Shown piece by piece: positions 1-7,678 of a stretch of DNA of 64,000 nt. Within the stretch, counting starts at the first letter, position 1, and each line of letters begins with the position of its first letter. Location of the stretch: positions 775,318 through 839,317 of the forward strand of contig CAWHEV010000009.1 in assembly GCA_963828485.1 (NCBI GenBank), read 5' to 3'. A program made the position numbers and the translations under genes. The notes under the pieces are model-generated. The model saw only the letters and a program-made list of their open reading frames with translations, did not search any database and was not told the origin of the DNA. Source of the stretch: an uncultured Chloroflexia bacterium. GTDB lineage: Bacteria > Chloroflexota > Limnocylindria > QHBO01.

Positions 1-115
1 CGCCGAGGGCGGCACCGAACGCATCGCGGCCACCGGGTCGGGCGAAGACGCGTAGCGCCGGGACATCGCGTCGAGCCGTCCCGCCGACGGCCGGCGCGCT
101 GGTAGGATCCGCGGC

Positions 116-2537: not shown

Positions 2538-3431
2538 ATGGCACGATCGATGTGGCGGGGGGCGATCCAGTTCGGCCTGGTCACCATCCCGGTCAAGCTC
2601 TACCTGGCCACCGAGACGGGGGGCATCGGCTTCAACCTGCTGCACGCCACCTGTCTGAATCGCATCCAGATGAAGGTGTACTGCCCGCATCACGACGAGG
2701 TCATCCCGCGCTCGGAGACCGTCCGCGGCTACGAGTGGAGCAAGGGTAAGTACGTCGTCGTGACCGACGAGGACATCGACTCGGTTCCTCTCAAGACGAT
2801 GCGCGCGATCGAGATCGAGATGTTCGTCAAGGCATCGCGCGAGAACGAGGGCACCCAGTTCGTCAAGCAGGCCTACTACCTTGAGCCCGAGCAGATCGGT
2901 GCCAAGGCCTTCTACCTGCTCAAGTCGGTGCTCGGCGAGCAGAACAAGAGCGCCATCTGCAAGATCGTCCTGAAGGATCGAGAGCAGCTGGCCGCCCTGA
3001 ACCCGTTCGCGAAGACGATGCTCCTGACCACGCTGCATTGGCCCGACGAGGTGCGGGCGCTCGACGAGCTGAGCCTCCCGGAAGACGAGATGGACATCAA
3101 GGCCTCGGAGAAGAAGATGGCCGAGCAGCTCGTGGCCAGCATGACCGGCGAGTTCGACGCCAGCGACTATGCCGATGGATACCGGCAGGCCCTCATGGCG
3201 GTCATCGAGAAGAAGGTCGCCGGCGAGAAGCCCGAGCCGCAGGAGCGCGCCGAGCCGACGAACATCACCGACCTCATGGCCGCGCTCGAGGCATCGGTGG
3301 CAGCGGCCCGGACGGACCGCAGCGCGGCCTCGAGCCCGAAGAAGGCGACCACCAAACGCAGCAGCACCAGGAAGAAGGCCGCTGCCGCCGCCTCGGAGGA
3401 GCCCGTCAAGCGCCGTCGCAAGACGGCCTGA
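2538..3431 (+). CDS. ku: Ku protein (non-homologous end joining)
   Basis: MARSMWRGAIQFGLVTIPVKLY N-terminus, Ku core and a Lys-rich C-terminal tail. ATG at 2538. Confidence 0.9.
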   Translation: MARSMWRGAIQFGLVTIPVKLYLATETGGIGFNLLHATCLNRIQMKVYCPHHDEVIPRSETVRGYEWSKGKYVVVTDEDIDSVPLKTMRAIEIEMFVKASRENEGTQFVKQAYYLEPEQIGAKAFYLLKSVLGEQNKSAICKIVLKDREQLAALNPFAKTMLLTTLHWPDEVRALDELSLPEDEMDIKASEKKMAEQLVASMTGEFDASDYADGYRQALMAVIEKKVAGEKPEPQERAEPTNITDLMAALEASVAAARTDRSAASSPKKATTKRSSTRKKAAAAASEEPVKRRRKTA

Positions 3432-3443
3432 CGTCCACCGGTC

Positions 3444-4136
3444 GTGCCCGGCGAGCAGCTCGGCCTTCCGATCGAGACGCCCGGCGCGTCCGAGCGCCTG
3501 CCGTCCCGTATCACGCCGATGCAGCCGTCGGCCGGTGCCGCCCCATTCGACGATCCCGCGTACCTCTTCGAGCCATGGTGGCCGGGCGTGCGTGCGATGG
3601 CGTGGGTCGAAGGGCAGGAGCTGGTCCGGCTCCGCGCCGCCGGACTCTCCGATGCCCTCGTCACGTTCGCAGAGCTGACCGAGGAGCTGCCCGAGCGGCT
3701 CATGGACGATGGCGTGGTGCTCGATGGCTGGCTCCTGGCGCTCGACGAGGGCGGATGGCTCGACACCGAGCTGCTGCGGCGACGACTGACCGGGGATCGG
3801 CGCGCCGGCCGCCCGGCCTTCGTGGCCACCGATCTTCTGTGGAGCGGTGGCGTCACCTGGCAGCGCCGGTCATTCGCCGCTCGCAGGCGCCGGCTGGAGG
3901 ACGTGCTTCGCGACGGCGACCGCTGCGTCGTCTCGCATGCGCTCCACGGTGACGGCACCCTCCTCGCCGAGGCGCTCGGCCGCTTCGGGATCGAGGGGAT
4001 CTCCGCTCGGCGGCTCGATGCCCGCCATCGGAGCGGACCCGCCGGCGAGGCCTGGCTGCGCCTCCCCGTCCGCCCGGCGCTGAGCACCGAGCGCCCCCGG
4101 CTTGCCCTCATCCAGCGCCTGCCGTTGAGCGCCTGA
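3444..4136 (+). CDS. LigD ligase-domain-like protein with degenerate catalytic motifs
   Basis: Follows ku by 12 nt. Ligase motif I appears as FEPWWPGVRA instead of EPKWDGYR. Motif V reads EGISARRLD (K to R) and motif VI reads WLRLP (K to R or P). VLDGWLL and DLLWSGG are retained. Only 230 aa. Confidence 0.6.
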   Translation: MPGEQLGLPIETPGASERLPSRITPMQPSAGAAPFDDPAYLFEPWWPGVRAMAWVEGQELVRLRAAGLSDALVTFAELTEELPERLMDDGVVLDGWLLALDEGGWLDTELLRRRLTGDRRAGRPAFVATDLLWSGGVTWQRRSFAARRRRLEDVLRDGDRCVVSHALHGDGTLLAEALGRFGIEGISARRLDARHRSGPAGEAWLRLPVRPALSTERPRLALIQRLPLSA

Positions 4137-4153
4137 GCCATCGTCACCGGCGC

Positions 4154-4804
4154 TCAGCGAGCCAGGAGCTCCTGGGCGTGCTCGAGCTTGGTCCGCGGAT
4201 CGGCGACCAGGCCCGGCCAATCTGCCAGGGCGGCGGCCAACCGATCGAGCTGACCGCGAGCCGCGGGGTCGTCGGCCGAGGAGAGCATCAGCTCGAGCTC
4301 GACAACGTCAAGCACGCCGAGCGGCTCGCCACCGCTTCCGATGACCGTCACCACATCGAGGCTCAGCGTCCCGAGCCGCTCGGCGCCGAGGTGCACGCCG
4401 CGCTCGGTTCGCAGCTGCCGGAGACGGAACTGCTCGCCCAGGGTCTCCCCATGGCTCAGCCGCGCGAGCATCTCGCGAGCCTCGCTCGCCGGCCAGTCGA
4501 CCGGCCGCATGGAAGAACTTGCGGGCCCCTCGATCTCGGGACGGCTGTGCAGCCAGGCATCGGCTCCCCCGGCCGCAGGCGCCGGGCCCTTGAGCGAGAC
4601 GATGAAGCCACTCCCGCGATCCCGCAGGCGGCACGCCCAGCCCGCCGAGCGGAGGCGGCCGTCCGCGGTGTCGAGGTAGATGTCGATCTCGTCGACGGTC
4701 GCCGCCGGGCCGAGCCGAGCGTCCGAGAGCGTCGACGCCGTCGCCAGCCCTGCGAGCACGGTCGCGTCAGCGGCGAGGAACTTTGCCTCGACCTCAGTCG
4801 CCAT
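4154..4804 (-). CDS. CYTH-domain protein (triphosphate tunnel metalloenzyme family)
   Basis: MATEVEAKFL start (ExExK motif) and beta-barrel CYTH-like periodicity. Overlaps the upstream WYL gene by 11 nt. Confidence 0.7.
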   Translation of the reverse strand: MATEVEAKFLAADATVLAGLATASTLSDARLGPAATVDEIDIYLDTADGRLRSAGWACRLRDRGSGFIVSLKGPAPAAGGADAWLHSRPEIEGPASSSMRPVDWPASEAREMLARLSHGETLGEQFRLRQLRTERGVHLGAERLGTLSLDVVTVIGSGGEPLGVLDVVELELMLSSADDPAARGQLDRLAAALADWPGLVADPRTKLEHAQELLAR

Positions 4805-5825
4805 AGCGCGCCGCAGCGGTGCGTGCCGACTCGGCGATCGCCTCGCGCAGCTCGGACGGCTCGATGACCTCGACCGCGCCACCCCACGAGAGCACCCACG
4901 ACTGGATCTCGACGATCCCGGCCACCGTGACCGCGAGCTCGAGCCCGCCGTCCGGGAGCTCGGTGATCACCTGCGACCGATGCCAGACGGCCTCGCGCAC
5001 CCGGTGCGCGACGGATGCGTCGAAGCGCAGGCGGATCCTGACCGCCGGCGTGCCCTCGGACGACCAGATGCCCCACGAGTTGGCCAGCCAGGCGTCCGGA
5101 TCGAAGTCGTCGGGGATCTCGTAACGGTCCGTGGTCAGCGTCGCGCTGCGGATGCGCTCGACCTTGTAGGTGCGCATGGCGCCAGCCGGCTCGTCGTGGC
5201 CGATGAGGTAGACGCTGCGGAGCGCCGCGTCCGGCTCGAGGAAGTAGGGCCGGACGCGGGTCCTCTTCGGTGCGGCCGTCCCGGGGTCGTAGTCGATCTC
5301 GACCACGCGTCCCTCCGCCCAGCCGCGCGCCACGGCCGAGAAGGAGCGGGTGAACGGCTCGTCCGGGTCGTGGGCCCCGATGGCGAGCACCGTGGCCGTC
5401 ACGTGGCGCGCGATCGGCTGCGGAACCGCATCGGCGAGCTTGGTGAAGGCGCTGACGACGGCGGCGTCGTACTGGTCGGACCACCGCGCGATGAGGCGCG
5501 AGGCGAGGAAGAGGACGATCGCCTCCGGGACCGACAGGTGCAGCGGAGGAAGGAAGAACTTGCGATCGATGCCGTAGCGGCCGCGACCGGCCTGGAAGAC
5601 CGGCACGTCGAGCTCCTCCTCGAGTGCCCGGATGTCGCGATACACGGTGCGCGTCGTCATCCCGGTCAACCGGGCGATCTCGGCGACCGGTACCCCGGCC
5701 TCGCCGCTGCCCTTCGTGTAGAGGATCGACGCGACGTTCAGGAGCCGTGCCAGTCGGTCCCGTTTCCGGCCGGCGCGGTCCTCCGCGGCACCCCAGCCGG
5801 ACCACTCGTCGTCGATCTCGGTCAC
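4794..5825 (-). CDS. HTH-WYL-WCX transcriptional regulator (PafBC-like)
   Basis: N-terminal HTH (GMTTRTVYRDIRALEE), central WYL-type domain (RPYFLEPD...VYLIG) and C-terminal WCX-like region. GTG start at 5823-5825. Confidence 0.75.
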   Translation of the reverse strand: MTEIDDEWSGWGAAEDRAGRKRDRLARLLNVASILYTKGSGEAGVPVAEIARLTGMTTRTVYRDIRALEEELDVPVFQAGRGRYGIDRKFFLPPLHLSVPEAIVLFLASRLIARWSDQYDAAVVSAFTKLADAVPQPIARHVTATVLAIGAHDPDEPFTRSFSAVARGWAEGRVVEIDYDPGTAAPKRTRVRPYFLEPDAALRSVYLIGHDEPAGAMRTYKVERIRSATLTTDRYEIPDDFDPDAWLANSWGIWSSEGTPAVRIRLRFDASVAHRVREAVWHRSQVITELPDGGLELAVTVAGIVEIQSWVLSWGGAVEVIEPSELREAIAESARTAAARYGD

Positions 5826-6937: not shown

Positions 6938-7678
6938 TCACCCCTCGGGTGATGCGCTCGGATCGGGCGAGGCCGATGGACGCGCCGACCGAGTCGGCAC
7001 CGGGGTCGGGCTCGGAGCCGCCTCGCCGGGGAGCTGCTCGATGATGGCCCGGTTGAGGGCGTCGTCCGTGCCGATGAGCAGGAAGACCAGGTCGTCGCTG
7101 GCCCACGTGTAGATGTGAGTGCCGAGCGCGGTGGCGTTGTCCTCCGGCCGGGTCCAGACGAGGTTCCCGGCCACCGTCTCGAGCGTCCATGGCTCGCGGT
7201 GGAGTCCGGCGATTCCCACGTAGCGGCCGGCCGTGGCGAGATGAGGTTCGAGGTCCTCGGTGGCGACCGGCTCGCCCTCGACGCGCATGGCGTACAGGGA
7301 GGTGCGCGGATCGGGCACGTAGGCGAGCACCAGTGACGAGAACCGGTCACCGATCTCGCCATAGGCGATGGCGACATCGCCCGGCGTCAGGGCGAACTCG
7401 TCGAACGGCGCCACCACGATCGCCACGCCCCCGGCCTCGGTCGGGATGAGCGCCGCCAGCTCTTCGTCGGGCTCGTTCGTGAACCGCGGGCTGGGTTCAG
7501 GCGTTGGCGTCGGGGCCGGCGTGACGGGAATCGGCGTCTGCGTTGCGCTTGCCGCCCCGCTCTCCGGTGGCGTCGGGCTCGGGGTCGTGCCCGAGCAGGC
7601 GACCAGCGCGGCTCCGACGAGGAGGACCGATGTGGCCGCCCCAAGCAGGCGCGGCGACACGAGGCGCGACACGATCAT
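6938..7678 (-). CDS. Pro/Thr-rich lipoprotein
   Basis: Signal peptide with lipobox LVACSG followed by a Pro/Thr/Ser-rich linker. Confidence 0.55.
   Translation of the reverse strand: MIVSRLVSPRLLGAATSVLLVGAALVACSGTTPSPTPPESGAASATQTPIPVTPAPTPTPEPSPRFTNEPDEELAALIPTEAGGVAIVVAPFDEFALTPGDVAIAYGEIGDRFSSLVLAYVPDPRTSLYAMRVEGEPVATEDLEPHLATAGRYVGIAGLHREPWTLETVAGNLVWTRPEDNATALGTHIYTWASDDLVFLLIGTDDALNRAIIEQLPGEAAPSPTPVPTRSARPSASPDPSASPEG

Follow-up and report, generated by a model that had tools for sequence, protein, structure and literature searches.

Directly downstream of ku in a 64,000-nucleotide stretch of contig CAWHEV010000009.1 from an uncultured Chloroflexia bacterium (the whole stretch is referred to below as the window), an open reading frame (ORF) at positions 3444..4136 of the plus strand encodes a homologue of the ligase domain of LigD, a component of bacterial non-homologous end joining (NHEJ), that contains no lysine and no OB domain. 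This assignment of the ORF as a pseudo-ligase is based on homology, the predicted fold, the distribution of the family and the ratio of non-synonymous to synonymous substitution rates (dN/dS). The ORF shows all three attributes of a pseudoenzyme: it is homologous to a family of enzymes, its essential catalytic residues are lost and it is under purifying selection. It is probably a derivative of the LigD ligase domain without catalytic function and a non-enzymatic helper in bacterial break repair that was not known before. Among the explanations considered, the one that we regard as likely is that of a pseudoenzyme maintained by selection, with the role of an accessory or adaptor subunit of NHEJ that has no catalytic activity.

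The ORF starts with GTG 12 nt past the ku stop codon (3429-3431) and encodes a protein of 230 amino acids (aa), an exact-sequence lookup of which returned no record. It is a true homologue of the nucleotidyltransferase (NTase) domain of the LigD ligase. The NCBIfam LigD profile PRK09632 is matched over positions 472-657 of 781 (E=5.8e-24) and TIGR02779 is matched with E=1.2e-17, and a PDB search identified the ligase domain (LigDom) of Mycobacterium tuberculosis (Mtb) LigD (1VS0 and 6NHX) at E=5e-11, improving to 7.6e-13 when the family profile was employed. All scores remain under the curated cut-offs, those of PF01068 (23.0 vs 26.2 bits), TIGR02779 (64.1 vs 227.75 bits) and PRK09632 (84.4 vs 989 bits), and in the profiles of stand-alone ligases (LigC PRK08224, minimal PRK07636) the NTase part only is matched (3-183 of 275; 8-189 of 350). 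Two other long ORFs overlap the region, one of 326 aa on the minus strand (3167-4147) and one of 304 aa on the plus strand (3038-3952); both are rich in Arg, Ala and Pro and look like high-GC artefacts, and it is the plus frame at 3444 that has homologues and a dN/dS below 1.

A protein search yielded 746 relatives of the ORF, the best 120 cluster representatives of which, termed tier 1, form the basis of the residue-conservation counts reported here. These ku-linked representatives comprise 229-256 aa, are 72-100% identical and come from metagenome-assembled genomes (MAGs) of Limnocylindria/Chloroflexota; 89 alignment columns are invariant among them, including the replaced catalytic positions. 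In a species scan, with one genome per GTDB species, at least 141 species of Limnocylindria (Chloroflexota) were found to encode a relative, and 80 loci were retrieved and used for the neighbourhood counts. The reading frame is intact in all 76 loci with a complete ORF, which come from independent assemblies, and the median pairwise dN/dS is 0.29, compared with 0.23 for the adjacent ku. The ORF is under purifying selection and is not decaying. The source pipelines label the members of the family “bifunctional NHEJ protein LigD” or “ATP-dependent DNA ligase”. Seven of the operon contigs (loci L007, L009, L049, L050, L053, L065 and L073) carry unrelated names (Steroidobacteraceae, Binatia, Angelobacter, Methylomirabilota), probably as a result of wrong binning or labelling of MAG contigs.

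The association with ku is strict. In the window, ku (2538..3431, plus strand) encodes a standard bacterial Ku of 297 aa, the C-terminal tail of which (about 3300-3428) is rich in Lys and Arg; the protein scores 265.5 bits with TIGR02772 Ku_bact (cut-off 150) and 137 bits with PF02735, and the 12-nt spacer (3432..3443, plus strand) between its stop codon and the GTG start is of the operon type of coupling. Directly upstream of the ORF, ku is found in 78 of the 80 loci; the remaining two are cut by contig ends, so that the linkage holds in 78 of 78 informative loci. The spacer measures 7-14 nt in 71 of 73 loci, and a GTG start is likewise used in 71 of 73. A readthrough fusion of Ku and the ORF was considered as well: in the window the two genes are in frame (12 nt), but gaps elsewhere are mostly 11, 8 or 10 nt, and since most of the spacers have lengths that are not divisible by three, such a fusion is not conserved and was rejected.

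The ku genes of these loci are embedded in a conserved gene order consisting of a three-domain ligase, a DUF6812-like gene, OsmC, a divergent response regulator, ku and the ORF, followed on the opposite strand by CYTH and HTH-WYL-WCX genes. Of the ligase, which is a Lig1-type three-domain ATP-dependent DNA ligase, only the last 17 codons fall within the window (2..52, plus strand; frame-2 translation AEGGTERIAATGSGEDA, followed by the stop codon), the rest being located upstream; this end matches the C-terminus, GETERIAAVGEAPPDA and stop, of the syntenic 577-aa ligase in locus L005. The syntenic orthologues have 575-579 aa and intact motifs KYDG, DGE, EGLMVKD and WLKLKK, and the L005 protein passes TIGR00574 (252.5 vs a cut-off of 217.8 bits). 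A Lig1-type ligase is encoded within 6 kb upstream in 66 of 80 loci, with the intact copy 3-5 kb upstream of the ORF. Since its C-terminal end corresponds to bases 2-52, a functional ligase lies just beyond the edge of the window. LigD Pol or PE domains and the tier-2 paralogue described below were found neither in the 64-kb window nor in the 80 loci, whole genomes not having been searched.

The preliminary description of this DNA, made from the sequence alone, had placed a protein of about 230 aa 12 nt after ku, with which the coordinates and the GTG start agree, and its coupling of the ORF to ku now extends to every informative locus. It had also proposed a survey for orthologues and a check for a functional ligD elsewhere: the survey has uncovered a large conserved family, present in at least 141 species, which, like its LigD-coupled relatives and its two terminal peptides of the docking type, could not be foreseen from the window alone, and a functional ATP-dependent ligase, the intact Lig1-type enzyme, is encoded just upstream of the window.

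The substitutions in the catalytic motifs were read from a residue-by-residue alignment of the ORF to 1VS0 (also 6NHX), and all the degenerate motifs are given here with their plus-strand coordinates. Motif I, FEGKWDGYR in Mtb LigD, reads FEPWWPGVR (3567..3593), with Lys replaced by W45, Asp replaced by P47 and R50 kept. In motif III, VLDGWLLALD (3717..3746), within VVLDGWLLALD (Mtb VVLDGEAVVLD), W96 occupies the position of Glu, and D94 and G95 are kept. Motif IV, EGVIAKR in Mtb, has become EGISARR (3993..4013), with R189 in place of Lys, the Glu position of this motif being variable within the family. Finally, in motif V, AWLRLP (4050..4067; Mtb SWVKxK), the first Lys is replaced by R206 and the second by P208. 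In the 120 representatives W45, W46, P47, W96, R189, R206 and P208 are invariant or nearly so, and G48 and R50 of the motif I region are invariant. Retained in the ORF are R50, D94/G95 and D130, and H165 and C161 are nearly invariant. No PF04679 match to an OB domain was obtained for the ORF and the whole domain is gone: the protein stops 22 aa after motif V, and according to the alignment with LigDs and the long forms described below, about 115 aa including motif VI are deleted.

The LigDom of LigD (Mtb residues ~450-759; 1VS0, 6NHX, 6NHZ; TIGR02779) and the ORF resemble each other in the NTase fold, in 27-29% sequence identity, in motifs I, III, IIIa, IV and V, which align column for column, and in the tie of the ORF gene to ku, and differ in that the ORF has no equivalent of K481, no motif I Asp, no motif III Glu, no lysines in motifs IV and V, no OB domain and no motif VI. 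The mechanism of LigD needs the motif I lysine, K481 in Mtb, which forms ligase-AMP (PMC8656161). Self-adenylylation and nick sealing are thus predicted, from sequence, to be absent from the ORF product; because the protein has no lysine, a lysyl-AMP intermediate would not be possible.

Most of the preliminary reading of these motifs is borne out by this comparison. The LigD ligase-domain motif layout that it had recognized agrees with the column-by-column alignment to 1VS0 and with the profile matches, and the alignment with LigD and LigC domains that it had proposed gave significant homology (PRK09632, TIGR02779, 1VS0/6NHX); the replacement of all catalytic lysines is confirmed by the 1VS0 alignment (W45, R189, R206/P208) and is fixed across the family, and the change of the motif I Asp to Pro corresponds to P47. 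It had ascribed the changes to codon substitutions rather than sequencing error, and the replaced residues are indeed invariant in the 120 representatives. The motif numbers were off by one, EGxxAK being motif IV and WLKxK being motif V, with motif VI located in the OB domain, and the loss of the motif III Glu (W96) was overlooked. As to the OB domain, the description was right that a full one is lacking, but the domain is entirely missing and not merely incomplete.

There is no lysine in the whole of the window protein (ORF 3444-4136), and the same is true of 108 of the 120 family members. The usage of lysine in local proteins is 1.0-1.7%, which corresponds to a probability of ~0.02-0.10 for its absence from 230 aa, and a neighbouring ORF of 246 aa (6938-7678, minus strand) also has none; Ku has 26 lysines in 297 aa. 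Because of this low local usage and the lysine-free neighbouring ORF, the lysine-free state is largely compositional, and it is not claimed as a special adaptation.

The AlphaFold (AF2) model of the ORF was built from 110 sequences of both divergent tiers, an alignment of 40 close homologues having given a predicted local distance difference test score (pLDDT) of 52 and being left unused. It has a mean pLDDT of 87.9 and a predicted template modelling score (pTM) of 0.83, with residues 21-210 above 90, and disorder is predicted for residues 1-13 (pLDDT <50) and 225-230. In Foldseek the model superimposes on ATP-dependent DNA ligases, in their adenylation domain, with a query-normalized TM-score (TMq) of 0.72 and a root-mean-square deviation of 2.6-2.8 Å over ~190-210 residues, and the match to Mtb LigD has 27-29% identity with E of about 1e-10. 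As modelled, the ORF keeps the fold of the ligase NTase domain, and the structural check suggested in the preliminary description is thus favourable to the proposed fold (pLDDT 87.9, TMq 0.72).

The wider family of lysine-less proteins was delineated through a profile search of 1.84 billion representatives followed by motif classification. The FEPWWPG clade, to which the ORF belongs, reaches below 50% identity. A second group, tier 2 (FEPxWGG), includes at least 528 clusters of proteins of 244-290 aa from Limnocylindrales/Chloroflexota, which have lost both the lysine of motif I and the OB domain; the genes of this group are not beside ku or ligD but are solitary, with genes for ABC transporters, cation ATPases and PPK around them. 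In the third group, the long form, which comprises about 32 clusters of proteins of 332-379 aa, the OB domain (PF04679) is kept and the lysine is lost (FEPSWDG, FEPSWEG, FEPDWDG), and in four of the four loci examined the long-form gene is located 2-5 nt upstream of that for a full-length LigD of 932-994 aa, which passes the LigD, ligD_pol and LigD_PE cut-offs and has an intact VEPKWDGVR motif. Through the linkage to ku in tier 1 and the linkage to ligD in the long form, the lysine-less lineage is tied to NHEJ genes in two independent ways. The tier-2 loci L086-L088 and the long-form loci L089 and L091-L093 share a neighbourhood with DeoC upstream and GBBH-like_N, YbjQ and PPK downstream, and because of these shared flanking genes tier 2 looks like a long-form locus after the loss of LigD and of the OB domain. 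In agreement with this synteny, a neighbour-joining tree, computed without support values, places tier 2 as sister to the long form and tier 1 as a separate lysine-less clade.

Besides the folded core, the three forms have two short terminal peptides in common. The N-terminal one, QLGLPI (residues 5-10; 3456..3473, plus strand; consensus QLDLPI), matches the hexameric beta-clamp-binding consensus QLxLxL (PMC4564189), is located in a flexible region (pLDDT <50) and has Ile, not Leu, at position 6; Q5 and L6 are invariant in tier 1. The pattern QLxLx[LIVMF] is present at residues 4-5 in 114 of 120 tier-1 and 109 of 118 tier-2 representatives and in every aligned long form, and in none of 66 Lys-containing ligase representatives. 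The fetched DNA contains 4,382 ORFs with a length of 100 aa or more, and the pattern occurs within the first 15 residues of 66 of them, 65 of which belong to the family and one of which is unrelated. The tier-2 versions are QLSLRL or QLSLPL, and E. coli Hda contains QLSLPL at residues 6-11 (PMC5397184). Hda is thus comparable to the ORF in its near-identical hexapeptide, in the same N-terminal position and in the flexibility of the segment, and unlike it in being an AAA+ protein of replication control; clamp binding by the ORF product is putative.

The C-terminal peptide, RPRLALIQRLPL (4092..4127, plus strand), with the core LxxLP[LF], is modelled with low to intermediate confidence. The sequence RPxLALIQRLPL, followed by acidic residues, is found in all 120 tier-1 members, with R217, P218, L220, L222, I223, Q224, R225, L226 and P227 invariant. 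The possibility that the RLPL tail is a remnant of motif VI was refuted by an L-INS-i alignment, in which the long forms hold a separate motif VI: their tail extends 25-30 aa beyond the motif VI-like segment that is aligned to LigD LRAPVFLGLRDD. The C-terminal tail also occurs in a Lys-containing stand-alone ligase family (P0439) and, for this reason, behaves like a portable docking peptide. Both terminal peptides are common to all three lysine-less forms, and catalytic LigD-like ligases are mostly without them; as additions to the LigDom, the N- and C-terminal peptides of the ORF are absent from the 66 catalytic representatives.

The motif I lysine is missing also from LigD-like proteins outside the family, of 300-450 aa, with motifs such as FEIRWDG, FEVRWDG, FEVRWDGLR, FELDWDG, FEPAWDG and others (P0164, P0170, P0178, P0198, P0201, P0206, P0223, P0230, P0232, P0249, P0420 and P0423). 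The C-termini of P0420 and P0423 (...LPQLPFAAPEP) resemble LxxLP[LF]. Lysine loss may be widespread in LigD-like modules.

On the likely explanation of the ORF as a non-catalytic NHEJ subunit, it encodes a paralogue of the LigD ligase domain that has kept the NTase fold and has lost the residues for adenylylation and sealing together with the OB domain. The preliminary description had tentatively proposed a pseudo-ligase or scaffold associated with Ku, and this explanation agrees with it. Ku and the pseudo-ligase would be co-produced from one operon, the latter having an accessory role in Ku-dependent end joining in which the folded core could serve as a structural or DNA/partner-binding module. 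The disordered peptides, QLxLx[LI] at the N-terminus and LxxLP[LF] at the C-terminus, would dock the pseudo-ligase to its partners, and sealing would be carried out by a separate ligase, either the upstream Lig1-type enzyme or LigD where the long form adjoins ligD. The ORF product may bind Ku, DNA, the clamp or a ligase, and would promote rather than restrain joining.

Several known systems can be compared with this arrangement. The ligase-dead LigD K484A of M. smegmatis supports NHEJ with comparable efficiency (PMC12848934), so that a ligase module without its lysine can still serve NHEJ, which points to a structural role for the module and to sealing by another ligase; this lysine-less module resembles the ORF, except that K484A was made by engineering a point mutation into an enzyme of three domains and the ORF is natural, separately encoded and OB-less. 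LigC (PRK08224), to which the role of a backup ligase in NHEJ is ascribed (PMC8068969), and the minimal ligases (PRK07636) are, like the ORF product, LigD-like proteins of a single module, with genes separate from those for the Pol and PE domains; unlike it, they are active and possess KxDG and an OB domain, the ORF being without catalytic residues. The ORF product may further be set beside proteins of eukaryotes. XRCC4, XLF and PAXX are non-enzymatic eukaryotic NHEJ subunits that act with Ku and the ligase and dock to Ku through short terminal peptides; the analogy to the ORF is functional, sequence and fold being unrelated.

Several observations weigh against the accessory-subunit explanation. 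Every member of the family comes from uncultured MAGs. The search for LigD Pol and PE domains, which found none, covered the window and the 80 loci. Since the tier-2 paralogues are not beside ku or ligD, the family is not obligatorily linked to NHEJ by position. Moreover, because Arg substitutes for Lys at motifs IV and V, some contact with phosphate or nucleotide could persist.

A more specific version of this explanation, in which the protein is an adaptor that bridges Ku-bound ends to the clamp and to the Lig1-type ligase, is a tentative possibility at best. The N-terminal peptide corresponds to the QLxLxL clamp consensus (PMC4564189) and near-duplicates QLSLPL of Hda in sequence and N-terminal position (PMC5397184), some tier-2 proteins having exactly QLSLPL; it is conserved across tiers of only ~35% identity while the adjoining linker varies, is disordered in the model, and has a background of one unrelated ORF in 4,382 and of none in the 66 Lys-containing ligase representatives. 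RecBCD provides a precedent for clamp-binding machinery of double-strand break repair (bioRxiv 10.1101/2025.08.20.671105). On the other hand, the clamp reading comes from a sequence match, position 6 is Ile instead of Leu in most tier-1 members, a link between the clamp and NHEJ was not found in the literature searched, and docking of the peptide to Ku or to LigD would be just as conceivable. Carried further, the ORF product might be a third dedicated NHEJ subunit, a lysine-less adaptor that recruits the clamp through its QLxLx[LI] peptide and binds Ku or the ligase through its core, its LxxLP[LF] peptide or both, so that clamp-assisted sealing by the Lig1-type enzyme replaces LigD; this is a speculative proposal, to which we assign a rather low probability, and under which the lysine-less LigD-like proteins of other lineages might be comparable, so far hidden accessory factors of NHEJ.

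The same features could also belong to a negative regulator, an “anti-ligase”, the dead domain of which occupies Ku or a 5'-phosphate end or nick and restrains joining, for example by limiting mutagenic NHEJ during growth. A fold kept without its chemistry would suit such a role, co-expression with Ku is as compatible with inhibition as with assistance, and the PafBC-like WYL regulator and the response regulator that flank the operon suggest regulated deployment. However, a translationally coupled, roughly stoichiometric pair of inhibitor and target in at least 141 species would be an uncommon arrangement, a similar coupling to LigD is seen in the long relatives, and the ligase-dead LigD of mycobacteria supports rather than blocks NHEJ (PMC12848934), and we therefore consider this role unlikely.

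It is very improbable that the ORF product is a still-active enzyme of non-canonical chemistry, engaged in nucleotide binding or sensing or in transfer via a non-lysine nucleophile. In favour of this reading, R50, D94/G95 and D130 are kept and Arg stands in for the lysines of motifs IV and V, so that the surface that binds phosphate could survive in part; C161 and H165 are, in addition, nearly invariant. Against it, covalent nucleotidyltransferases as a superfamily employ the lysine of motif I (LigD K481; PMC8656161), of which, as of any other lysine, the protein is devoid; two Trp and one Pro substitute for pocket residues, and step 1 requires the OB domain and motif VI, both of which are missing. 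A decaying remnant of a LigD domain, or a sequencing or assembly artefact, is rejected as having a negligible probability, since the sub-cut-off scores (PF01068 23 vs 26.2; TIGR02779 64 vs 227.75) and the absence of the C-terminal third of the ligase domain are opposed by the intact frame in 76 of 76 complete loci, the dN/dS of 0.29, the spread over at least 141 species, the 89 invariant columns that include the replaced catalytic positions, the confident AF2 fold and the novel conserved terminal peptides.

Bacterial NHEJ is described as a two-component Ku-LigD system (PMC6379672, PMC5124664). In our searches of the literature, neither a LigD-like partner of Ku or LigD that is devoid of lysine nor a link between the clamp and NHEJ was found. 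A dead ligase-fold protein that is class-wide, fixed to ku (or to ligD in relatives) and under selection argues for a non-enzymatic third component of NHEJ, and would represent a natural counterpart to the laboratory result that ligase-dead LigD still supports end joining. The putative docking peptides offer handles on how stand-alone ligase modules reach Ku-bound ends and on whether the sliding clamp participates. The pipeline names “LigD” and “ATP-dependent DNA ligase” are misleading for these proteins and overstate the NHEJ ligase capacity of the respective genomes.

Downstream of the ORF, the gene for a CYTH-domain protein (4154-4882, minus strand), which ends 17 nt from it, is present in 59 of 80 loci, and that for an HTH-WYL-WCX (PafBC-like) regulator (4794..5825, minus strand; PF25583 WCX 75 bits, PF13280 WYL 40 bits) is found downstream in 71 of 80. 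The latter is a candidate regulator that would belong to the system, and the conserved WYL and CYTH neighbours may reflect damage-responsive regulation of the ku operon. Many of the loci have an additional gene between the ORF and the CYTH and WYL genes, for a membrane protein of the Wzy_C (O-antigen ligase-like) type. Upstream of ku, a weakly conserved element, TTG-N6-CG-N-TGTA-N3-T, is located ~70-95 nt before the ku ATG in 76 aligned upstream regions (window ~2440-2470), and a GGTACC-N5-GGTACC repeat (2417-2433) is present in the window and is not conserved.

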